DNA from: Patescibacteria group bacterium
Lineage (GTDB): Bacteria > Patescibacteriota > Microgenomatia > JAMCYU01
Length of the DNA stretch: 64,000 bases
Direction of reading: 5' to 3'
Assembly: GCA_023473585.1 (NCBI GenBank)
Contig: JAMCYU010000004.1
Coordinates: 133,748-197,747, forward strand
Shown here: in pieces, positions 4,969 through 61,264 of the stretch
Layout: each line of letters opens with the position of its first letter
How positions within the stretch are numbered: the first letter of the stretch is position 1
Made by a program: the position numbers and the translations under genes
The notes under the pieces: generated by a model
The model's input: the letters and a program-made list of their open reading frames with translations, nothing else
Database searches by the model: none
What the model was told of the DNA's origin: nothing

Positions 4969-5744
4969 AAAAGGTGGCCGTAAAACAGGGCAAAAATCGT
5001 GCTTCCTGCCAAAAACGGTCCAAAAGGAATATGACTTTTTAACTTTTTTTTGCCTCTTAAAATCAGTATTACACCGATGGCGGCCCCTGTCAAGAAAGCC
5101 AGGTATAAAGCGACGATAATTTTCGGATAGCCCAAAAAAAGACCCATCAAAACGGCTAATTTGAAATCCCCAAAACCCATACCCCGGCCGGAAGTTAATA
5201 AAAATAAAATTAAAAAAAGGAGACCGGCCAAAAAGCCGGAGATGAGATTCGATATAAGGATATTGGGATATAAGGAGAAGATGAGAGTGATGATGATGGC
5301 CGGATAAACGATTTCGTCGGGAATTATTTCGTGGTAAAGATCAATAAAGAAAATGACAATTAAAGCGTAAATAAGTATTAAGTAGTAGGTAGTAAGTATT
5401 AAGTCTTGTCTGCTTAATACTAAATACTTAATACTTAATACTGTAAGTACTCCCGTCACTAATTCCACAAAAGGATATTGCCAACTGATAGGGAAGTGAC
5501 AATGCCGGCAACGACCGCCCAAAACAAGAAAAGAAAGAAGCGGAAGGTTATCATACCAGGAAATTTTCTTTTTGCATTTAGGACAAAAAGAGCGGCCGGT
5601 AAGGGGAAGGGAATTGGGTAAACGATAAATCAAAACATTCAAAAACGAACCGAATACCAAACCAAAACAAAAGAAAAAAAGTGGAAACAAAAAAATCATA
5701 AGAAAATTAACACCTTTACACTGAAAGAATTCAACCTTATACAA
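4938..5744 (-). CDS. pilD: Prepilin peptidase (A24 family) PilD
   Basis: GSFLNVLIYRLP, a tetracysteine CPKC...CRHC motif, catalytic FFIDLYHEIIPD and GMGFGDFKL. The start may be the internal Met (MIFLFPLFFF). Confidence 0.85.
   Translation of the reverse strand: MYKVEFFQCKGVNFLMIFLFPLFFFCFGLVFGSFLNVLIYRLPNSLPLTGRSFCPKCKKKISWYDNLPLLSFLVLGGRCRHCHFPISWQYPFVELVTGVLTVLSIKYLVLSRQDLILTTYYLILIYALIVIFFIDLYHEIIPDEIVYPAIIITLIFSLYPNILISNLISGFLAGLLFLILFLLTSGRGMGFGDFKLAVLMGLFLGYPKIIVALYLAFLTGAAIGVILILRGKKKLKSHIPFGPFLAGSTIFALFYGHLLWEKLIAALL
5372..5457. repeat. AGTAT/ATACT-type AT-rich simple-repeat block inside pilD
   Basis: TAAGTATTAAGTAGTAGGTAGTAAGTATTAAGTCTTGTCTGCTTAATACTAAATACTTAATACTTAATACTGTAAGTACT. 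It shares 16-19-mers with the blocks at 8981-9017 and 28466-28497 and encodes SIKYLVLSRQDLILTTYYLILIY. Confidence 0.7.
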
Positions 5745-8980: not shown

Positions 8981-9017
8981 CATACTTAATACTTTATACT
9001 TAATACTAAATACTAAT
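8981..9017. repeat. ATACTTAATACT tandem repeat block in the pilB-pilT intergenic region / pilT 5-prime UTR
   Basis: CATACTTAATACTTTATACTTAATACTAAATACTAAT. Confidence 0.7.
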
Positions 9018-11623: not shown

Positions 11624-13612
<1,989 letters not shown>

Positions 13613-28195: not shown

Positions 28196-28945
28196 AGATG
28201 AAAGAATTTGCTGCAAATCTTCCGGTAATTTTGCTTCCATTTTGCATAATTTTCCGGTTGCCGGATGAAGAAATTCAATCGAAGCGGCGTGTAAAAAAAC
28301 TCTGGGACAAAATTTCCGGTCGTCTCTTCCTCTTTTTCGGCCCGCGTAAAACTCGTCACCGACAATGGGAAAACCGAGATATTTTAAATGAACCCGAATT
28401 TGATGCGTCCGCCCAGTCAAAGGCCAAACTTCAAGAAACGTTAAAGGCTCCCTGTCTCCGTTTGTAACTTTATACTTTATACTTAATACTTTATACCTGG
28501 TTTCCGCTTCCCTGCCGCCGGGAAAAACACCGAAACGTTCTCTCTGCCAAGGAAGCCGACCGATAGGCGCCTTGATTTCACCTTCCTCGGGCGCAACTTG
28601 GCCGTGAACCAACGTAAGATAGGTCTTTTTAACTTTTCTTTCCTTAAATTGCGCTTGGAGGTTTAAAAAAGCTTCTTCGGTTTTGGCAATCAAAAGTAGG
28701 CCGCTTGTCTCTTTATCAGTTCGATGAACAATTCCCGCTCTTTTAACAAAGTCACTGTCCCCGATTGTAGATTTTAAATTGTGAATTTTAAATTTTTTCT
28801 CAACCCAATCCTGCACTGTTTCCAGATCTTTTGTCGTGTCGGCCTTATTAACGATCATACCGGAGGGTTTATCTATTACTAGAATTTCTTCGTCTTCGTA
28901 AAGAATTTTCGGGGAAAGGTTCACTTTTGTTTCTTTTTTTCGCAC
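28187..28945 (-). CDS. RluA-family pseudouridine synthase
   Basis: HRTDKETSGLLLIAKT carries the catalytic Asp motif. Confidence 0.8.
   Translation of the reverse strand: MRKKETKVNLSPKILYEDEEILVIDKPSGMIVNKADTTKDLETVQDWVEKKFKIHNLKSTIGDSDFVKRAGIVHRTDKETSGLLLIAKTEEAFLNLQAQFKERKVKKTYLTLVHGQVAPEEGEIKAPIGRLPWQRERFGVFPGGREAETRYKVLSIKYKVTNGDREPLTFLEVWPLTGRTHQIRVHLKYLGFPIVGDEFYAGRKRGRDDRKFCPRVFLHAASIEFLHPATGKLCKMEAKLPEDLQQILSSLI
28466..28497. repeat. ACTTTATACTTAATACT repeat block in frame inside the RluA-family gene
   Basis: AACTTTATACTTTATACTTAATACTTTATACC encodes YKVLSIKYKV. It shares the peptide LSIKY and a 19-mer with the other blocks. Confidence 0.7.
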
Positions 28946-29283
28946 TCAAGGCAAAGTTCCGCCGTGGGCATAACCGCCAATCTATCTGTGTCAATCATTT
29001 TCCCGCATTTTTCGCAAATGCCGTATTTACCGATTTTAATTTTCGTTAGGGCTTTTCTGATCCTGACCAAGTTTCGGGAAAGTTCGAATTTAATCGCCTC
29101 AATCCGCTGATGACCGATCTGTTCCTTAACCTCGGTATCAATAGAGGCATTATCAATTAAGCGGTCGGTATCCGAAAACGGATCTTCTTTTGCCAAATTC
29201 GCCATTTTCTTTTCCGTATCTTCTTTTTGTCTTTTAAGATGTTCCTCAATCGGTTTTAAGATGTTAATCGGAAATTTAAACAT
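28921..29283 (-). CDS. DksA/TraR-family C4 zinc-finger protein
   Basis: C-terminal CEKCGKMIDTDRLAVMPTAELCLEC preceded by a coiled-coil. Confidence 0.6.
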   Translation of the reverse strand: MFKFPINILKPIEEHLKRQKEDTEKKMANLAKEDPFSDTDRLIDNASIDTEVKEQIGHQRIEAIKFELSRNLVRIRKALTKIKIGKYGICEKCGKMIDTDRLAVMPTAELCLECEKKKQK

Positions 29284-30091
29284 AATTGCCTTTCTTAAAT
29301 TTTAGATTTTTAATTTTTGTTAAAACGACCAAGAAATCCGTTTTGAGATTTCTGCCTAAACGGCGAAACAAAAAAACAGTTGCGCTTAAAATAAAAAAGA
29401 GGCAAACTATTTGTGTTGTTCGCCAACCCAAGAAGTATACACTATCACCCCTGAGGATTTCAAGAAAAAATCTGGTGATTCCAAAAATAAGAAAATAGAA
29501 AAGAAAATTAAGACCCGTCGGCAACTGTCTCTCTCGCCATTTTTTTTCTAATTTTACTAACAAAACAAAAGTAAGGATGGCCGCGATTAGCTCGTAAATT
29601 TGCGTCGGATGGCGTTTACCGAGAAGTCCGATCATGGGAACACCCAAAGGCAGATTAGTTATTTCTCCATAAGCCGATCCTCCCAAGAAAGCACCAATTC
29701 TCCCAATGGCCTCGCCCAAACTTAAGCCCAAGACTAAAAAATCGCCCAGTTGCCAAAAAGACCAATTCTGACGCCTGGCAAAAATTAAAGCCCCGATTAA
29801 ACCGCCGAAAATGGCACCGATAAAGGAAAGCCCCGGAAAATGAAAAAACAAAAACCATTTAAAGGGGGCTAAACCGAAATCAGAAAAATGAAGAATCAAA
29901 TAATAAATTCTGGCACCCATAAGACCAAAGAAAAGCTCGGCCAAAAGAAAATCAACTATTCTTTGCTCGTCTAGCTTGGCCTTTCTGCCTTCACGCCAAA
30001 CCACAAAACTCCCCATGATGATTCCCAAGGCCAGAAAAAGTCCGAAAGAATAAATTCTGACTGGACCGATCGTTAAAAGAATCGGGTACAT
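29276..30091 (-). CDS. lgt: Prolipoprotein diacylglyceryl transferase
   Basis: MYPILLTIGPVRIYSFGLFLALGIIMG and a conserved Lgt membrane topology. Confidence 0.8.
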   Translation of the reverse strand: MYPILLTIGPVRIYSFGLFLALGIIMGSFVVWREGRKAKLDEQRIVDFLLAELFFGLMGARIYYLILHFSDFGLAPFKWFLFFHFPGLSFIGAIFGGLIGALIFARRQNWSFWQLGDFLVLGLSLGEAIGRIGAFLGGSAYGEITNLPLGVPMIGLLGKRHPTQIYELIAAILTFVLLVKLEKKWRERQLPTGLNFLFYFLIFGITRFFLEILRGDSVYFLGWRTTQIVCLFFILSATVFLFRRLGRNLKTDFLVVLTKIKNLKFKKGNYV

Positions 30092-41869: not shown

Positions 41870-41877
41870 ACTTCGTT

Positions 41878-41972
41878 AATTAACCTAATTGACCTAATTA
41901 ACCTAATTTCTAAAAAATAACCCATTTAATAATTTTTTTAGGTCAATTAGAAATTAGAGCAATTAGAAATTT
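41878..41972. repeat. CTAATT-rich palindromic intergenic element, copy R1
   Basis: Tandem CCTAATTRA units with inverted repeat CTAATTGACCTAA...TTAGGTCAATTAG and AATTTCTAA/TTAGAAATT. Core TTGACCTAATTTCTAAA is shared with the copies at 58119 and 58993. Confidence 0.7.
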
Positions 41973-41974
41973 GT

Positions 41975-42652
41975 ATGTTGAATCCCAACACGGTTATTCT
42001 CGAAATTCGCGGCGCGGCCGGAGGCGATGAGGCCAAAATTTGGGCTGAAGATCTTTTACGCATGTATGGCCGCTTCGCCGTTAGCCAGGGCTGGAAAATT
42101 GAACCTTTAGGCGAAGGTACGGTGAAGATTGCTGGTGCTGGCGCTTTTGAAAAATTAAAAAACGAGGCCGGCGTGCACCGGGTCCAAAGAATTCCTCAAA
42201 CCGAACGCCGGGGCCGAATTCATACTTCGACCGCGACAGTCGCTGTTTTGCCAGAAATTCCCGAAACCCAGGTTTATATTAATCCCGCTGATTTGGAAAT
42301 GCAGGTTTATAGAAGCTCCTCACACGGGGGCCAAAACGTTCAAAAAGTTTCCTCCGCCGTCAGATTAATTCATAGGCCGACCGGTTTAGTCGTCTCCTGT
42401 CAAACCGAAAGAGACCAATGGCAAAACCGGCAAACGGCTCTTGGTATGCTTCGGGCTAAGCTCTGGGATTTGGAAGAAGAAAGAAAAAGACTACAATTGG
42501 CAGATTTGCGTCAGGTTATCGGCCGCGGCATGAGAGCGGAAAAAATTAAAACTTATAATTTTCCGCAGGATCGGTTAACCGATCATCGGCTTAATAAATC
42601 CTGGCGCCATTTAGAAAAAATCCTCGCCGGAGACCTTAACCAGGTTATTTAA
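41975..42652 (+). CDS. Class I peptide chain release factor, RF1-like, lacking N-terminal domain 1
   Basis: VILEIRGAAGGDEA, codon-recognition loop RVQRIPQTERRGRIHTS (PQT where canonical RF1 has PAT) and SSHGGQNVQKVSSAVRLIH (GGQ). Only 225 aa; domain 1 is absent. Confidence 0.75.
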   Translation: MLNPNTVILEIRGAAGGDEAKIWAEDLLRMYGRFAVSQGWKIEPLGEGTVKIAGAGAFEKLKNEAGVHRVQRIPQTERRGRIHTSTATVAVLPEIPETQVYINPADLEMQVYRSSSHGGQNVQKVSSAVRLIHRPTGLVVSCQTERDQWQNRQTALGMLRAKLWDLEEERKRLQLADLRQVIGRGMRAEKIKTYNFPQDRLTDHRLNKSWRHLEKILAGDLNQVI

Positions 42653-52981: not shown

Positions 52982-53590
52982 TTAAAAATCCTTTCTGCCT
53001 TCAAGCGCCCGAGACAAAGTTACTTCATCAGCATACTCTAAATCCCCGCCGGTTGGCAAACCCTGACCTAATCTCGTAATTTTAAATTTTAAATTTGAAA
53101 TTTTAAATTGATTTTTGATGTACATGGCCGTCGCTTCTCCTTCCATATTGGGATTGGTTGCCAAAATAATTTCCGAAACCGGGTAGGCAAAGGATTTAGT
53201 CCTTTCTAAAAGTTTCTCAATATAAAGCTCATCCGGACCGATATTATTTAAGGGAGAAATCGCTCCGTGAAGAACATGATAAACACCCTGATATTTGCCA
53301 GTTTTTTCCAAAGCCAAAACATCCAAAGCTTGTTCCACGACACAGATTATTTTTTTGTCACGTTTGGGATCCGAACAAGTCGGGCAGGGATCGCTTTCGG
53401 TCACGTTAAAACAAACGGAGCAAAGAACCGTTTTTTGTTTTAAACTCTTTAGGGCCTCGCTAAAATCCTCCAGTTGCTCCTGCGGGACATGAAGAAGATA
53501 AAAAGTTAATCTTTGGGCGCTTTTTGGCCCGATACCCGGCAGTCTTTCAAAAGATTCAATTAATTTTTGCAAGGATTTAGGAAGCTGCAT
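52982..53590 (-). CDS. recR: Recombination protein RecR
   Basis: Start MQLPKSLQKLIESFERLPGIGPKSAQRL (HhH), C4 zinc finger CSVCFNVTESDPCPTC, Toprim, and C-terminal GEATAMYI...GGDLEY. Confidence 0.9.
   Translation of the reverse strand: MQLPKSLQKLIESFERLPGIGPKSAQRLTFYLLHVPQEQLEDFSEALKSLKQKTVLCSVCFNVTESDPCPTCSDPKRDKKIICVVEQALDVLALEKTGKYQGVYHVLHGAISPLNNIGPDELYIEKLLERTKSFAYPVSEIILATNPNMEGEATAMYIKNQFKISNLKFKITRLGQGLPTGGDLEYADEVTLSRALEGRKDF
53068..53103. repeat. AT-rich octamer tandem repeat (AATTTKAA)x4 in frame inside recR
   Basis: TAATTTTAAATTTTAAATTTGAAATTTTAAATTGATT encodes KNQFKISNLKFKI. It is 33/36 identical to the repeat inside the kinase gene at 57178-57215. Confidence 0.8.
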
Positions 53591-53597
53591 AGAGAAA

Positions 53598-54506
53598 TTA
53601 TAGCACTTTTTTGATAGCTTCGACCAGAAGCTGATCGACAGAAACGATTTTAAGTTTGGAAAAAAGTTGGGCTGAGGGAACAAGAATCGTATCGGAAACA
53701 AAAATTTTCTCAAGAGAAGAATTAGCTAGTTTTTCTTTGGCACCGTCAATAAAATTAGCGTGCGTGGCGCAAACGAAAACTTTTTTAGCGCCGAATTTTT
53801 TTAAAATTTCGGCGGCACCGACAACCGTTCCTCCTCCGGCAATGATGTCGTCAACAATGACACAAGTTTTCTTTTTTACCTGCCCGATAACATTTAGAGT
53901 TTCAAGCTCGTGAATTTTGTCTAGGTTTCTTTTTTTTTCAACCATCGCCAAAGGAGCATTGACTTTTTCCGCAAATGATTGAGCTCTTTTCGCCCCGCCG
54001 GCATCGGGAGCCACGATAATAAGATCATCTTTAAGTTTTTCTATTTCCGACTGAAAAATGGAAAGACCGAAAAGTTGAGAAACCGGGATATCAAAAAATG
54101 AAGCCACGGAATCACTGTGTAAATCAATCGTCACGATTCTCTCAATGCTCATGGTTTCGATAAGCTTTGTCACGACGCGAGCCGAAATACTCTCGCCTGG
54201 CCGATAAGCTTTATCCTGCCTTCCATAACCGAAATAAGGAATAACGGCAATAATTTTTTCGGCTTCACTTTGTTTTAGAGCATCGCAGATTAAGAAAAAT
54301 TCCATTAAATGATTATCAACCGGATTGGAAAATGAAGTAATGACGAAACAAATCTTACCCCGAACGTCTTCTTCAATTCTGACTCTACCTTCAGAATCGG
54401 CAAAACGCACAATCTCTATTTTTGCCAAAGGCATTCCCAGTTTGGCGGCGATTTTACCCGCCAGAGGTAAATTGGAACTCCCAGCAAAAATTTTAAAATC
54501 TTTCAT
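53598..54506 (-). CDS. prs: Ribose-phosphate pyrophosphokinase
   Basis: PRPP-binding motif VIVDDIIAGGGT and the N-terminal Prs domain. Confidence 0.9.
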   Translation of the reverse strand: MKDFKIFAGSSNLPLAGKIAAKLGMPLAKIEIVRFADSEGRVRIEEDVRGKICFVITSFSNPVDNHLMEFFLICDALKQSEAEKIIAVIPYFGYGRQDKAYRPGESISARVVTKLIETMSIERIVTIDLHSDSVASFFDIPVSQLFGLSIFQSEIEKLKDDLIIVAPDAGGAKRAQSFAEKVNAPLAMVEKKRNLDKIHELETLNVIGQVKKKTCVIVDDIIAGGGTVVGAAEILKKFGAKKVFVCATHANFIDGAKEKLANSSLEKIFVSDTILVPSAQLFSKLKIVSVDQLLVEAIKKVL

Positions 54507-55345
54507 TTGTTTCTTGCCCCTCGGGAAAAATCATGAAAAAGCTCCATTATCCTTTTGGTGTTTTCTCCCACTCTGCCGTTTCCCACCGTGAGATTATCAA
54601 TCTGGACAACGGGCATAACTTCTTTATTGCTGGCCGTAATGAAAGCCTCATCGATTTCCTCAAGCTCTTGATATTTAATCGGCCTAAAAACCGTTTTGAA
54701 TTCTTTTTTGGCAAGGTCAATAACAACCTGGCGCGTTATTCCCTTTAAGATTTCATCTTGGGGCGTAATCAAATTCCCGTTCTTGAAGATAAAAAAACTG
54801 CTTGTTGTTCCTTCCAGGACTTCTCCCCTTTTGTTGGTGTAAAGCGCCTCGATGGCTTTTTTCTTTTTGGCAATTTTTAAAGCTAAAATCGCCGGAATAT
54901 AATTTATTGTTTTCGCCAAATGGTAAGATCTGCCGAAAGGAACCGTGACAACTTTAATGCCCTTTTCATAATAAGCGACGGGGAAACTAATCGCCGGAGT
55001 TATAATCACGGCCAAGGTTGGTTTATCGGCCGGTGTGATTTGGTCTAAACTTACGCCGCCGGTTAATAGAATTTTGATATTGGCTTCAGGCAGGTTGTTT
55101 TTAGCTAAAGTTTTAATGGTCATTTGTTTGATTTGACTAATGGGTGGACATTCAAGACCAATTTGTTTGGCAGAATTTTGCAGGCGTTTCAAGTGCTCGT
55201 CAAGTTTAAAGGGCTTACCATTGTAGGTTCTTAAAAAATCAAAAACCCCGTAGCCACGGATAAGGCCAAGGTCAAGAATGGAAACCCTGGCTTTGTCTTT
55301 AGAAACAAATTTTCCATTAACGTAAAAAATAAGGTTTTTAGACAT
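54503..55345 (-). CDS. Class IV PLP aminotransferase (branched-chain or D-amino-acid aminotransferase)
   Basis: Aminotransferase class IV fold (E..G.SSF); about 280 aa. Confidence 0.8.
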   Translation of the reverse strand: MSKNLIFYVNGKFVSKDKARVSILDLGLIRGYGVFDFLRTYNGKPFKLDEHLKRLQNSAKQIGLECPPISQIKQMTIKTLAKNNLPEANIKILLTGGVSLDQITPADKPTLAVIITPAISFPVAYYEKGIKVVTVPFGRSYHLAKTINYIPAILALKIAKKKKAIEALYTNKRGEVLEGTTSSFFIFKNGNLITPQDEILKGITRQVVIDLAKKEFKTVFRPIKYQELEEIDEAFITASNKEVMPVVQIDNLTVGNGRVGENTKRIMELFHDFSRGARNK

Positions 55346-55348
55346 TTC

Positions 55349-56620
55349 TTACGTGCCTTCTTGCCAAGAAGTTAAGTATCTTTTTTGTTCAGGCGTCAAT
55401 TTGTCAATTTCGACATTCATGCTTTTAAGTTTTAAACTGGCGATTTGCCGATCTAATTCTTCCGGTAAAGTATAAACAATCGGTTTTAAGTCTTTTCTCT
55501 TTTGTAATATCCATTCGGCCGCCAAAGCTTGATTCGCAAACGACATGTCCATAACTTCCGGCGGATGACCTTCGGCAGCGACAAGATTGATTAAACGGCC
55601 CTCACCTAAAACATAAATAGTTCGGGGTTCTAAGTTATGAGTTCGGAGTTTGTATTCAGTTACGTATTCCCGAACCTGCCGTTTTGAAACGGCTTTCTTT
55701 TCCAACTCCTCAACCGCGACCTCAACATTAAAATGACCGCTATTGGCCAAAATCGCTTTGTCTTTCATTTTTTCGATATTTTTAAAAGAGATGACTTCTT
55801 TGTCGCCGGTGGCGGTGACAAAAATATCGCCGATTTTGGCAGCTTGACTAATCGTCATGACTTCAAAGCCGTCCATAACCGCCTCCAATGCCTTGATAGG
55901 ATCAACTTCGGTAATAACAACTTTAGCTCCCATGCCTCTCGCCCGAGAGGCAATCCCCCGACCACACCAACCATAACCACAAACAACAAAGTTCTTTCCG
56001 GCTAAGAGAAGATTGGTGGCTCGTAAGATACCGTCAATCGTTGATTGACCGGTTCCGTAGCGATTATCAAAAAAATGTTTTGTCTGACTGTCATTAACGG
56101 CAATGACCGGAATTTTTAAGGCGTCGTCCTGTTCCATGGCCTTAAGCCTAATAACTCCGGTGGTTGTTTCCTCGCTGGAACCGTAAATTTCTGAAATTTG
56201 TTTTTTTCTGTTTTTATGAATTTCAGAAACTAAATCGGCTCCGTCATCCATCGTAATCTGCGGATGGGTCTCTAAAACCGCTTTCAAATGTTGGTAATAA
56301 GTTTTATTATCCTCGCCTTTTTTGGCAAAAACAGGAATCCCAAAATCGGTCGCTAAAGAAGCGGCGACATCATCTTGAGTCGAGAGCGGATTTGAAGCAC
56401 AAAGAGCAACACTGGCTCCTCCGGCTTTTAAAGTTAAAACTAAGTTTGCCGTTTCGGCCGTAACGTGTAAACAAGCACCGATTTTAATATTTTTAAGTGG
56501 TTTTTCCTTAGAAAAACGTTCCTTAATAAGATTTAAAACCGGCATGTGACTCCCCGTCCATTCAATTCTCAATTTTCCCAAAACGGAGAAAGACGGGTCT
56601 TTAATGTCAAAATTCGCCAT
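55349..56620 (-). CDS. ahcY: Adenosylhomocysteinase
   Basis: NAD-binding GYGWCGRG and AhcY core motifs. Confidence 0.9.
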
Positions 56621-57588
56621 TTTAAATCCTCTCTAAAATTTTCTTGATAACGATTTTTAAATTCTTCCACGGTAAATTTATGAGTTGTTGTTCCGTATTT
56701 TTCGACAGTGTAAACTGCCGCGATGCTCCCCATTTTACCACAAGTCTTTAAAGGTAGTCCACGAAGAAAACCGGCCAGAAATCCTGCCCGATAAGCATCA
56801 CCGGCCCCGGTTGGATCAAGAACTTCGCGCGGTTTGGCTGGTGGTATTTTGTACGTTTTTCCGTCAGCTTCGACGATCGATCCCTTGTCTCCTAATGTTG
56901 TTATCCAGACTTGAGATATAGTTTGACCTATTGATTCCCCGCCTGCGCCGAGGCTTCGGCGGGCAGGCCGGAATCGGTTGCGAATTAAGGCTATTTCATA
57001 ATCATTTCCAGTGACAATTTTCGCTCCCTCAATTCCTAATTTTAAATCTTTGTCTGATAATCTCGGTAACTGCATCCCCGGGTCAAACATATATGGCAGA
57101 TTCAATTTAAGACAATTGTTAACATGGTTATTCATGGCTTTTGGTTCATTCGGAGATATGACAACAAAAGGAGTTTGTCCAATTTGAAATTTGAAATTTG
57201 AAATTTGAAATTGTGCGCTTGCACGCATGGCTCCCGGGTAAAAACCGGTAATTTGGTTATCAACCATGTCCGTAAAAATAAAAGCCGAGGCAGTTGGTTC
57301 TGCTTCAATGATTGATATCATTGAAGTGTCAACACCAACTTTTTCTAGTTCACTTTTATATTCAGCAAAATCATAACCGGCCGTGGCTAAAACGGTAGGT
57401 CTTAAACCGAGTAGTGCTAAATTATAAGCAATATTGCCGGCGGTCCCGCCGTACTGTTTTTGCAATTTCTCGACTAAAAAAGAGAGGTTAATCTCATGAA
57501 TTTTTTCAGGTAAAATATGGTCGCCAAATTTACCCGGAAAATTCATAATTAAATCAAAGGCTAAAGAACCGGTAATAATTACTTTCAT
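56569..57588 (-). CDS. PfkB-family carbohydrate/nucleoside kinase
   Basis: N-terminal GG motif ([15 protein letters not shown]) and C-terminal [13 protein letters not shown]. Overlaps the ahcY start by 52 nt. Confidence 0.75.
57178..57215. repeat. Perfect (AATTTGAA)x4 tandem repeat in frame inside the kinase gene
   Basis: Encodes [11 protein letters not shown]. Near-identical to the recR copy. Confidence 0.85.
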
Positions 57589-58109
57589 AATTTTATCAGG
57601 GAGATGATTTTATAATCTTTTAGTCTTTTTCGGGGATGAAGATAAGTTAATTCATTAAGAAAAAGAAAAGCGGTCACTTTCCCACCGGCTTTCTCCACCA
57701 GTTTGGCTGCGGCCAAAGCTGTCCCGCCGGTAGCTACCAGGTCATCAACGATTAAGACTTTTTCTCCTTTTTTGAGAGCGTCAGCGTGAATTTTAACGCC
57801 GTCGATTCCGTATTCTAACTGATATTTTTCGCTAATAACTTTTCTCGGCAGAAGTTTATTTAGTTTACGCACCGGCACAAAACCGACTTTTCTTTTTTGA
57901 GCGATTAAAGAACCGAAAATATACCCGCGGGACTCAATGGCCAAAACTTTAGTAAATTTGGTTTTAGAGATTTTACCAAGCATTTGTTTTAAAGCTTCGT
58001 CGAAATAGACAGGATCTAAAAGCAAGGGGGTCAGGTCACGAAAAACGATTCCCTTTTGGGGAAAATCAGGAATATCCATGATTTTAGAACGAAGATTGAG
58101 TTTAGACAT
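57585..58109 (-). CDS. apt: Adenine phosphoribosyltransferase
   Basis: [16 protein letters not shown] and PRPP motif [13 protein letters not shown]. The ATG at 58107-58109 is the likely start; the track uses an upstream TTG. Confidence 0.85.
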
Positions 58110-58118
58110 AAATAACAA

Positions 58119-58194
58119 AATTTCTAATTATTCTAATTTCTAATTAACCTAAAAAAATCCTAACTTGGAAAATTCATTTAGAAATTAGGTCAAT
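58119..58194. repeat. CTAATT-rich palindromic intergenic element, copy R2
   Basis: AAATTTCTAATTATTCTAATTTCTAATTAACCTAA...TTTAGAAATTAGGTCAATTT, with terminal inverted repeats AATTTCTAA/TTAGAAATT and core TTGACCTAATTTCTAAAT on the reverse strand. Confidence 0.7.
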
Positions 58195-58992
58195 TTAAAT
58201 CCTAGCTTCTTTAAGGGCATCTCCACACTCACACGTACGACTTTTGGGTATTTTTTTGATCATCTCTCTGACTAATTTTTTTGCTTCAGCAATATTTTCT
58301 CCAAAAACTTGCATAATCTCATCAGTGGAGACCGGTGGTAATTTTTCCCAAGCAACTATGCCAACATCATAATCGGTCACGATGGCAATCGAACTATAAC
58401 ATATTTCCAGTTCTTTAGCCAAAGCAACTTCTGGATAGCCGGTCATATTAATAATATCCCAGCCCATTTTGGTGAACCATTCGCTTTCGGCTTTGGTGGA
58501 AAACCGAGGGCCTTCAACAATTACCAGGGTTCCCTTCCGATGAACCCGTAATCCTTGTTTTAAACTAATCTCGTAGGCTATTTTGTTGATTTCCGGACAG
58601 TAAGGATAAGCAGTAGAAATATGAACCGTTTTTGGCCCATCAAAGAAAGTTGCTTGCCGGCCGGAGGTTCTATCAACAAACTGATCAATGACAACAAAAT
58701 CCCCTCTTTTAATTTGTTTTTGAAGAGAACCACAGGCGGTCAGGGAAATAATTCTTTGCACGCCGAGTTTTTTTAAAGCCCAAAGATTGGCCTTATAGGG
58801 GATTTTGTGAGGAGGAAACTGGTGATGCTTACCATGACGCGGTAAAAAAATGACTTGCCGCCCGGTCATTTCACCCACGGCGATTTTGTCCGAAGGAAAG
58901 CCGTAAGGTGTTTCAATTTTTATTTCCTTAGCTTTATCCAACAGTTGATAAAATCCCGAACCGCCGATGATCGCAATGTCCACATTCGTCAT
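58195..58992 (-). CDS. mtnP: S-methyl-5-thioadenosine phosphorylase / purine nucleoside phosphorylase (PNP-UDP family)
   Basis: MTNVDIAIIGGSGFY, phosphate-binding and purine-binding motifs, and a C-terminal Cys cluster typical of MTAP. Confidence 0.8.
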   Translation of the reverse strand: MTNVDIAIIGGSGFYQLLDKAKEIKIETPYGFPSDKIAVGEMTGRQVIFLPRHGKHHQFPPHKIPYKANLWALKKLGVQRIISLTACGSLQKQIKRGDFVVIDQFVDRTSGRQATFFDGPKTVHISTAYPYCPEINKIAYEISLKQGLRVHRKGTLVIVEGPRFSTKAESEWFTKMGWDIINMTGYPEVALAKELEICYSSIAIVTDYDVGIVAWEKLPPVSTDEIMQVFGENIAEAKKLVREMIKKIPKSRTCECGDALKEARI

Positions 58993-59077
58993 AATTTCTA
59001 ATTCCTAATTATTCTAATTAACTTAAATAAGTCTCAATTTAGAAATTAGGTCAACTAGATTAATTTCTAGCTACTCA
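58993..59077. repeat. CTAATT-rich palindromic intergenic element, copy R3
   Basis: ATAATTTCTAATTCCTAATTATTCTAATTAAC...CAATTTAGAAATTAGGTCAACTAG; same family as R1 and R2. Confidence 0.7.
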
Positions 59078-60767: not shown

Positions 60768-60841
60768 AATCTAATAAACAAATAAACTAATAATCTAATG
60801 ACCAATGACTAATCACTAATTCCTAATATCTATATCTAATT
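60768..60841. repeat. CTAAT-rich intergenic element, diverged copy R4
   Basis: AATCTAATAAACAAATAAACTAATAATCTAATGACCAATGACTAATCACTAATTCCTAATATC. It has tandem CTAAT units but lacks the TTAGAAATT arm. Confidence 0.45.
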
Positions 60842-61264
60842 TTATTGTTCCAGGCCGAATAAATTGGACAGGCCATGACAAACTAACTCGCCGATTTTTT
60901 GATCTACCAGTTTATTTTCGGCGCCGGCTAGTAACACTGCCTGCGGATAAGAAATGACGATGTCGCCGATACGTAAAACCCTGTCCGGCGGTGTCACAAA
61001 AGGCTTCCCTTCCTCAAGGGAAAAGGTCAAAACCGGAGTGGTATAGTCGTGCTGACGATATTTTTTATTCAAGGCTCGCATCTTACGGTCGCCGACAATA
61101 CTAAGACTCACTTCGATCTCGTTTTTGATTTTTCTCTCCACTAAGAATTTTTCGACCTCTTCCCTTAAAGACGCACGATTGATTAAAAATCTTGATTCGC
61201 TCTGAATAAGAACGTTAGCCACCGAGAACCTCCTTGACGATTTTGCTAACGATGCTTCCGTCAC
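60842..61264 (-). CDS. ybeY: YbeY-like endoribonuclease homologue with degenerate metal-binding motif
   Basis: RALNKKYRQHDYTTPVLTF matches the YbeY core. The C-terminal HGLSNLFGLEQ stands where the canonical motif is HGxLHLxGYDH, so two His and the Asp are substituted, and the protein ends immediately after. Confidence 0.55.
   Translation of the reverse strand: MTEASLAKSSRRFSVANVLIQSESRFLINRASLREEVEKFLVERKIKNEIEVSLSIVGDRKMRALNKKYRQHDYTTPVLTFSLEEGKPFVTPPDRVLRIGDIVISYPQAVLLAGAENKLVDQKIGELVCHGLSNLFGLEQ

Follow-up and report, generated by a model that had tools for sequence, protein, structure and literature searches.

A 64-kb window of DNA from a Patescibacteria group bacterium (the whole 64,000-nucleotide stretch analyzed, from contig JAMCYU010000004.1) carries two look-alike tandem repeats of 7-nucleotide (nt) period, one within recR and one within the gene for a PfkB-family kinase. 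The two segments probably arose independently, as examples of a class of heptanucleotide simple sequence repeats (SSRs) found throughout the lineage of Microgenomates-type Patescibacteria, generated by slipped-strand events and filtered by the reading frame. The original prediction had described look-alike repeats inside these two genes, and their presence is supported by Tandem Repeats Finder (TRF), sequence shuffles, the open reading frame (ORF) list, and Pfam.

The recR gene (52982-53590, minus strand, from the ORF list) encodes 202 amino acids (aa) counted from MQLPKS..., contains the Pfam domains RecR_HhH, RecR_ZnF, Toprim, and RecR_C, and has a product identical to protein P0001. Its array lies at 53078-53109 (minus strand), where the coding strand reads AATTTAA, AATTTCA, AATTTAA, AATTTAA, and AATT and specifies QFKISNLKFKI, residues 161-171 of RecR; TRF reports a period of 7, 4.6 copies, and 92% matches (plus-strand unit AATTTTA). 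The second gene (56569-57588, minus strand, from the ORF list) encodes a 339-aa PfkB-family carbohydrate/nucleoside kinase (Pfam PF00294, E = 7e-47), for which an exact protein match is present in the Patescibacteria metagenome-assembled genome (MAG) GCA_023380895.1. In this gene the array at 57181-57212 (minus strand) is perfect, with the coding strand reading (AATTTCA) x4.6 over residues 126-136 (11 aa), and TRF reports a period of 7, 4.6 copies, and 100% matches (plus-strand unit AATTTGA). The two arrays have the same orientation and the same register, and the codon view agrees with the earlier statement that each yields the peptide QF(K/Q)ISN(L/F)KF(K/Q)I from the minus strand.

The repeat unit had been read as the octamer AATTTKAA, a reading that is ruled out by a self-similarity peak at 7 nt. 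The unit is instead the heptamer AATTTKA; the eighth base, an A, already belongs to the following copy. The 34-mers originally quoted were found at 53077-53110 and 57180-57213, which places the first coordinates for the recR segment ∼10 nt too low, and they are identical at 30 of 34 positions rather than the 33 of 36 reported. When the array-coded residues were located in AlphaFold models, those of RecR formed the end of the last Toprim helix, the next loop, and the first strand residues, and those of PfkB fell in a loop that joins a helix to the FVVI strand. Judged from these models, both array-coded segments appear to be tolerant linkers.

Both arrays consist of head-to-tail copies of a unit within the 1-11 nt that defines an SSR and are longer than expected by chance, with nothing comparable in shuffled sequences. 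A search for three copies of AATTTKA with ≤3 mismatches returned 14 overlapping matches in the window, compared with 0.5 expected from shuffles, and a chance origin of the two arrays is excluded. When the window was scanned for tandem self-similarity at periods 4-12, with shuffled sequence as a control, there were 7 arrays at period 7, 0-1 at each other period, and none in the shuffles. The units of these arrays vary (AAGTATT-type, AAATTTN-type, and ATTAGNN-type), their period and size (27-35 nt) are common to all, and at least six unit families are present in the 64 kb, with AAGTATT-type units occurring in four places.

The distribution of such arrays among lineages was analyzed in loci fetched around RecR homologs, which carry the labels Patescibacteria, Gottesmanbacteria, or Microgenomates. 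Close relatives were taken from contigs encoding RecR homologs. The negative control for period-7 density was a set of loci, mostly from outside the Candidate Phyla Radiation (CPR), obtained from two RecR-seeded collection scans (genome and metagenome contigs) on a generic DLEYADE pattern; the matches listed were mostly distant relatives. The Microgenomates-type loci (∼295 kb) contained 28 period-7 arrays and at most 5 arrays of any other period. Among the matches listed, the mostly non-CPR loci (∼1.5 Mb) contained 14 period-7 arrays, at least 8 of which came from CPR members, and periods 6, 9, and 12 were comparable, with 7, 11, and 14 arrays, respectively. Based on this difference in period-7 counts between the two sets of loci, the heptamer excess is a property of the lineage, and it reaches into genes: 23 of the 36 arrays in CPR loci are within long ORFs, each free of an in-frame stop codon, and 13 are intergenic. 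The original prediction had reasoned that a repeat common in random frames would be of ordinary compositional origin; heptamer arrays are indeed generally common, but the unit seen in the window is not common in random frames.

In Firmicutes, Chloroflexi, Actinobacteria, and some CPR members, the RecR linker from EGEATAMYI to TR(I/L) is fixed at 11 aa and is of the SRLLKPxGIKV type. In a Gottesmanbacteria-like clade this linker is 12-23 aa long and frequently reads as a translated heptamer array, and in the window the array fills a 13-aa linker that precedes TRLGQGLPTGG. The median linker length is 13 aa in array-like and array-free relatives alike, in line with the earlier proposal that the motif overwrites native recR sequence rather than inserting into it. 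A +21-nt (three-unit) in-frame expansion, considered as the source of the recurrent 32-33-nt length, conflicts with the unchanged linker length and is kept merely as a sub-variant in which expansion is accompanied by a compensating deletion. Duplication of the 21 nt that encode KFKITRL was also considered as an origin; its halves agree at 16 of 21 positions, but mostly as a consequence of the 7-nt periodicity, from which a duplication cannot be separated.

The unit at the recR site changes from one relative to the next. Perfect arrays were found in the recR linkers of L163 (AGTTCAA x4.6, encoding QFKVQSSKFKV), L165 (CAAATTT x5.4, encoding a 12-aa peptide and having the same unit as the PfkB array of the window), and L166 (AAATTCA x4.7, encoding KFKIQNSKFKI), and L169 has a perfect 14-nt higher-order version; there is no array in L167 or in L162, whose RecR is 88% identical to that of the window. 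The residues in the middle of the linker peptides (ISN, QSS, and QNS) correspond exactly to each unit read in its shifted frames; the DNA periodicity is therefore primary at this linker and the peptide secondary. The earlier note had named conservation of the same peptide without nucleotide repetitiveness as the outcome that would tell against its proposal; relatives keep the nucleotide repetitiveness and not the peptide. The recR arrays end at K-phi-K-phi codons that abut the conserved TR, and in L165 and L006 the array goes one codon further, replacing the T of TRL with S (ATT TCA AGA).

These data bear on the proposal that selection acts at the protein or RNA level, with an amphipathic phi-K-phi-x-N-x-K-phi-K-phi peptide, or an mRNA or DNA binding site, being selected and the periodicity arising as a by-product. 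Similar phi-K-I-x-N-x-K-phi-K-I peptides do recur in RecR and PfkB across lineages, the recR array contains a weak σ70-like match, and leader arrays are found directly upstream of start codons both here and in a phage-like contig, a placement that fits the proposal of translational regulation outlined for TAACTGA repeats (PMC4679880). We nevertheless regard selection of this type as very improbable, given that the peptide varies by lineage (QFKVQSSKFKV, KFKIQNSKFKI, IPNNQLLI, and NKQLTTNNKL) while the DNA periodicity is kept, that its middle residues follow the frame-shifted units, that units containing stop codons are tolerated with a single patch base, and that the PfkB array has no promoter-like match and the window no Rfam match at an array. 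A promoter role was rejected on a consensus match of only 9 of 12 positions in the recR array and none in the PfkB array. A structured-RNA role was rejected on the result of an Rfam gathering scan of the window, in which one tRNA was the sole match and no structured RNA was matched at the arrays.

The PfkB and prepilin peptidase (PilD) sites behave in a comparable manner in relatives. The PfkB segment that follows FYPGAM is variable in length and sequence, with heptamer-type peptides such as LKIKNEKLKI and LKIENCKLK in several lineages, and the PfkB linker of the window (∼19 aa) is similar in length to that of the nearest array-free relatives. In L162 (6317-6439) this linker is filled by the GC-rich stretch SALSSGAALACGAESTPFRSSLGGTPPRAP, is ∼20 aa longer than the linker of the window, and has no heptamer array; from these sequences, the site appears to accept very different fillers. 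The loop between transmembrane segments TM1 and TM2 of PilD contains, in relatives, the heptamer-derived peptides IKYQVLSIKY, IKYQILNIKY, IRDMRYEIRF, and SKFQIPNSNY. In the window, the prepilin peptidase gene contains a pair of arrays (5372-5442) of the same unit family in opposite orientations, which fold into a hairpin (DNA fold -12.7 kcal/mol, z = -4.3). The array at 5372-5404 (minus strand; plus-strand unit TAAGTAT-type) is inverted relative to the one at 5416-5442 (minus strand), which reads AGTATTA x3.9 on the coding strand and encodes TVLSIKYLVL. In P0241 and P0243 the sequence in place of the second PilD array is 6 aa longer and non-inverted, which suggests a recent origin for the inverted copy, with the first array as its possible template.

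The need to avoid stop codons helps to account for the likeness of the recR and PfkB arrays. A heptamer present in at least three copies is read in all three frames, and its unit must be stop-free in all seven cyclic triplets. For a unit of the form A3T3N, A or T at the last position creates TAA and G creates TGA, and only C (CAAATTT) leaves the unit stop-free; among cyclic unit classes with six A/T bases, 42 of 128 are stop-free, AAATTTC and AAAATTC among them. The PfkB array is the perfect stop-free version of the A3T3N unit. The recR array is mostly AAATTTA, and its single C-containing unit is located exactly where an in-frame TAA would fall (ATT TCA, not ATT TAA). Likewise, the arrays in pilD and in a gene for an RluA-type pseudouridine synthase, whose units contain TAA, each have one variant base at the in-frame position. 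Since only C leaves an A3T3N unit stop-free, convergence in part explains why the recR and PfkB arrays are nearly identical; it would account for much of the likeness, though not rigorously for all of it. The shared register could be the result of both arrays having grown from a K/Q-F-K/Q-I seed (AAA TTY MAA ATT, reading AAATTYM AAATT), and the shared 32-nt size would fit a tolerant window of ∼11 aa.

The alternative is that the recR and PfkB arrays are of common origin, as copies of a short dispersed or mobile repeat or as products of copying between loci (ectopic gene conversion, or an element similar to Rickettsia palindromic elements (RPEs) or miniature inverted-repeat transposable elements). 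This alternative would account directly for the unit family, register, and 32-nt length that the two arrays share. It would also fit the recurrence of the same units in unrelated genes of related genomes (AAGTATT-type units, and AAGTTCA, which is present both in recR of L163 and in a 1111-aa ORF of L165), the exchange of the recR array as a patch between near-identical strains, and the occurrence of exact (AAATTTC)n arrays in 19 viral contigs. We consider a common origin unlikely on several grounds. The recR and PfkB copies have no common flanks, terminal inverted repeats, or target-site duplication; the flanks are unrelated, and the units differ rather than forming a consensus with shared termini. 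There is no gain in length over array-free orthologs (a recR linker of 13 aa with or without an array, and a PfkB linker of ∼19 aa). The unit at a single site differs by lineage and, in RecR, agrees with the local K-phi-K-phi seed codons beside TR. In addition, the recR patch lies within an ordinary homologous-recombination tract (∼390 bp), and the choice of unit is narrowed by stop-codon avoidance. RPEs are mobile, palindromic, and roughly 100-150 bp long, and they lengthen their host proteins by added residues. What the present arrays have in common with them is that conserved proteins tolerate the repeated DNA in frame; the arrays are direct tandem repeats of 27-35 nt with no palindrome, except for the PilD array pair, and no added length. 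For these reasons the RPE-like family suggested earlier as one of two possible origins is not favored, and its other suggestion, recurrent slippage-generated SSRs, agrees better with the many units seen in coding and intergenic sequence, the one-unit difference between strains, and the in-register substitutions described below.

Comparisons between close strains bear on how the arrays change. The window and L001 are 99.9% identical over about 10.5-11 kb. Within the recR array patch (53060-53132, the array plus ∼10 nt on each side), 30 of 79 aligned columns differ, and the L001 patch is 6 nt longer and contains an AATTMCT-type array. Outside the patch there are 12 differences over ∼11 kb, 11 of which are in the adjacent 290 bp (53159-53448), and the T-R-L codons that adjoin the array are fully recoded synonymously (ACG AGA TTA versus ACT CGT CTT). 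From this pattern, the recR difference between the window and L001 appears to be a homologous-recombination tract of ∼390 bp (window 53060-53448, L001 14150-14535) carrying another array allele, and not a slippage event.

The comparison with L168, which is 95% identical to the window across the PfkB gene, gave a different result. The PfkB arrays of L168 and the window differ by two A-to-C changes located exactly 7 nt apart, with identical flanks and unchanged length; CAATTTC is present in the first three units of the L168 array and in the first unit alone of the window array. We roughly estimate a chance of ∼4% that two random substitutions would both fall in register and agree in type. The heptamer array in the dnaX 5′ leader (60797-60827, minus strand; gene strand ATTAGGA, ATTAGTG, ATTAGTC, ATTGGTC, and ATT) has one additional 7-nt unit, ATTAGTA, in L168. 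Whole-unit copy-number polymorphism, as known for SSRs, was therefore seen at the dnaX leader array and not at the recR or PfkB arrays, and concerted unit change was seen both in the different perfect units that occupy the recR site and in the paired changes of the L168 PfkB array. Gain or loss of a unit where there is no reading frame, together with in-register homogenization within one, is what slipped-strand processes classically leave behind. The window and L168 differ in a second cluster of positions at 56810-56990 (PfkB gene positions ∼597-777), in a 24-aa region that is a low-confidence loop of the protein model (pLDDT <50, residues 209-219).

The same strains provide evidence on whether the arrays are phase-variable contingency loci, at which gain or loss of one unit would switch recR, PfkB, and other genes off and on by frameshift; the earlier note had named the two arrays as candidate sites of phase or length variation. 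SSR contingency loci such as Haemophilus hmw have many more copies and documented copy-number switching; they have in common with the present arrays a unit that is not a multiple of three, such that one unit shifts the frame (7 mod 3 = 1). Phase-variable heptanucleotide repeats have been described in Haemophilus (hmw promoters) and E. coli K1 (neuO), and the dnaX leader array is polymorphic in unit number. In contrast to contingency loci, the coding arrays have only 4-5 copies and a constant length in all comparisons: no out-of-frame copy-number variant was found, the PfkB array does not vary in length among the window, L001, L168, and P0122, and the recR array is either identical among strains (the RecR protein P0002 is identical) or replaced as a whole patch. 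Thus, in the four strains and relatives compared, the coding arrays are constant or swapped as a patch. The host genes are also housekeeping genes (recR, the kinase, rluA-type, and pilD) with no obvious gain from switching, and the RecR homologs, 120 among the matches listed, are full length (193-301 aa, nearly all with the full RecR Pfam domain set). Phase variation is therefore a highly unlikely function of these arrays.

What the data show is the period and its excess, the distribution among lineages, a conserved site whose unit changes, an unaltered linker length, the constraint from stop codons, a polymorphism of one unit, and substitutions in register; the slipped-strand or templated-conversion mechanism, and any cause of the 7-nt preference, are inferred. 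The process would begin at an AT-rich seed with 7-nt self-similarity, for example the K-F-K/Q-I codons AAA TTY MAA ATT, which would favor out-of-register pairing of nascent and template strands during replication or repair. Repeated misalignment would then copy the unit onto its neighbors, by in-register conversion or by unit gain and loss, and periodicity would spread into sequence that is free to change. Between genes, the outcome would be a change of copy number by whole units. Within genes, selection would retain the versions that keep the frame and linker length and are stop-free, and arrays would come to fill surface linkers of ∼11 aa with no lengthening.

Several points weigh against this account of the recR and PfkB arrays as independent slippage-derived SSRs. 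Slippage itself was deduced rather than directly observed, and what separates the recR genes of the two 99.9%-identical strains is a patch acquired by recombination, not a product of slippage. The in-register substitutions are a single case with a rough chance of ∼0.04. A single-unit slip within a gene is a frameshift, and homogenization of a coding array needs conversion, 21-nt steps, or transient null alleles. The unit, register, and 32-nt length shared by the two arrays exceed what the stop-codon filter by itself predicts, as the match of the unit alone has a chance of ∼1 in 42. Arrays of the same AT-rich unit are present in GC-rich viral contigs, indicating that composition alone does not choose the units, and the account gives no reason for a period of 7.

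A stronger form of the proposal, which we put forward tentatively and think more doubtful than not, is that a lineage-specific mutational drive with a 7-nt step, acting through out-of-register templated conversion, continually overwrites tolerant loops of RecR, PfkB, PilD, RluA, and DnaX as well as 5′ leaders while keeping their length, with the unit set by the seed codons and by stop avoidance. In its extreme version, a dedicated factor may write or bind AATT-cored heptamer arrays, and such a factor would also account for the AT-rich arrays in GC-rich phage-like contigs. If a 7-nt drive is real, the proteome is molded at fixed sites by a process at the DNA level, which also leaves housekeeping genes with standing tracts prone to frameshift.

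The arrays are of a known kind, the heptanucleotide SSR; the phylum, the diversity of AT-rich units, the mostly in-frame location at fixed linkers of housekeeping proteins, and the length-neutral take-over set them apart. Heptanucleotides are described as the most abundant class of long SSRs in many bacterial genomes, with polymerase slippage as their proposed origin and the polymerase footprint as the proposed cause (Mrazek et al. 2007, as summarized in PMC4679880 and PMC4692102). The arrays described here share with those of that survey (Mrazek, Guo and Shah 2007) the low-copy tandem 7-nt units, their over-representation, and a proposed slippage origin. As the survey is summarized (PMC4679880), units with lengths in multiples of three were likeliest within genes, whereas here 23 of 36 heptamer arrays are in frame in genes, at conserved housekeeping linkers. 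Judging by its summaries, the survey was made without Patescibacteria, the phylum in which the present arrays are found.

The cyanobacterial STRR, Xanthomonas GGGAATC, and Beggiatoaceae TAACTGA families are described as mainly intergenic, often just upstream of start codons (PMC4692102, PMC4679880). The cyanobacterial STRR sequences and the GGGGA(T/C)T and GGGAATC repeats of Nostoc and Xanthomonas are, like the present ones, heptamer arrays, some occurring as inverted pairs like that of PilD, and as outlined in PMC4692102 they vary in length and sequence among close relatives at conserved positions, as is seen here. They are reported there to be G-rich and essentially intergenic, with one dominant unit per genome, whereas the present arrays are AT-rich, diverse, and in many cases coding. 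The TAACTGA repeats of marine Beggiatoaceae, Cyanobacteria, and Bacteroidetes (MacGregor 2015, PMC4679880) are described as having 2-6 copies and lying mostly a few nt upstream of start codons, like the AATTAGR leaders of the window, with a minority within ORFs at tolerant positions, a likeness to the coding arrays. According to that account (PMC4679880), TAACTGA is a single unit whose forward orientation has stop codons in every frame; the present arrays have many units, and coding copies are found in conserved enzymes. A single genome-dominating, mainly intergenic unit of the STRR or TAACTGA type is not what the window contains, with its six or more families in 64 kb and 23 of 36 arrays coding in the CPR loci. 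A literature search on SSRs in CPR or Patescibacteria found nothing on the topic, which is weak evidence of absence.

Should the same pattern be seen across whole genomes, it is a clear case from nature in which mutational bias writes protein sequence. In that case, as the same loop is filled by different heptamer-derived peptides in each lineage, the alignment columns of the RecR, PfkB, and PilD loops reflect DNA slippage and not protein function. Heptamer-derived segments could mislead homology searches, alignments, phylogenies, and tests of selection on CPR proteins, and they mark frameshift-prone sites at which MAGs may show pseudogenes or errors of assembly or gene calling. With many orthologous sites, many units, and both coding and leader contexts, they also provide a comparative system for asking why 7-nt units dominate bacterial long SSRs.

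Other heptamer arrays of the window are found within genes, between genes, and in 5′ leaders. The RluA-type pseudouridine synthase gene contains an array at 28467-28496 (minus strand; coding strand GTATAAA/GTATTAA) that encodes RYKVLSIKYKV and in which an in-frame TAA is avoided by one variant unit, and a weaker AAATTTN-type array found by TRF at 28771-28796 (minus strand; peptide KFKIHNLKS). TRF also identified a weaker AAATTWA-type array at 29295-29318 (minus strand; peptide KIKNLKFKK), at the C terminus of a 271-aa membrane-protein ORF (29276-30091) that we presume to be lgt. An intergenic array, ATACTTA x5, lies at 8982-9016, in the gap that separates the stop codon of pilB from the start codon of pilT.

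The leader arrays found by TRF are at 58119-58145 (minus strand; gene strand AGAAATT-type), directly upstream of an adenine phosphoribosyltransferase-like gene; at 58992-59010 (minus strand; gene strand GGAATTA-type), abutting the start codon of a PNP/MTAP-family gene; and at 41945-41971 (plus strand; AATTAGA x3.6), directly upstream of an ATG at 41975/41976. Four start codons in the window (58119-58152, 58993-59025, 41940-41975, and 60797-60860) are directly preceded by AATTAGR heptamer-like units, roughly TTTTTTTAGGTYAATTAGAAATTAGARYAATTAGAAATT..ATG on the gene strand. By analogy with the start-proximal TAACTGA repeats of Beggiatoaceae, these leaders might affect translation initiation.

The 17-mer TTGACCTAATTTCTAAA is common to 58180-58196 and 59040-59056 (minus, or gene, strand), ∼60-80 nt upstream of two neighboring genes; it has a -35-like TTGACC at its start and is a candidate promoter element. 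At 41877-41908 there is a 9-nt tandem repeat, TAATTAACC x3.6, which shares its intergenic region with the AATTAGA leader array; the TAATTAACC motif also terminates the array at 58140-58149. A perfect 21-nt tandem repeat (TTATTCCCAGAAAAGCTCTGC, 2.2 copies) at 11671-11716 either occupies the 5′ end of the conserved part of the gyrB ORF or immediately precedes it; its translation, if it has one, is two copies of SQKSSAY. In the window, L001, L162, and L163, two purine-salvage genes (PNP/MTAP-family and phosphoribosyltransferase) stand between ybaB and the PfkB kinase gene, and these two genes are absent from L168 (L168 9710-10001 versus window 57585-58992).

Heptamer arrays are also found in IMG/VR contigs recovered by an exact (AAATTTC)n match (L171, L175, L176, L178, L183, and L170), which are extremely dense in them, with up to 8 arrays in 6.5 kb. 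Some of these are composite arrays, 70-99 nt long, in which the unit changes gradually from one end to the other, and in L175 an array is located directly upstream of each phage structural gene. Several of the six have a GC content of 0.56-0.67, and their AT-rich arrays are compositional outliers.

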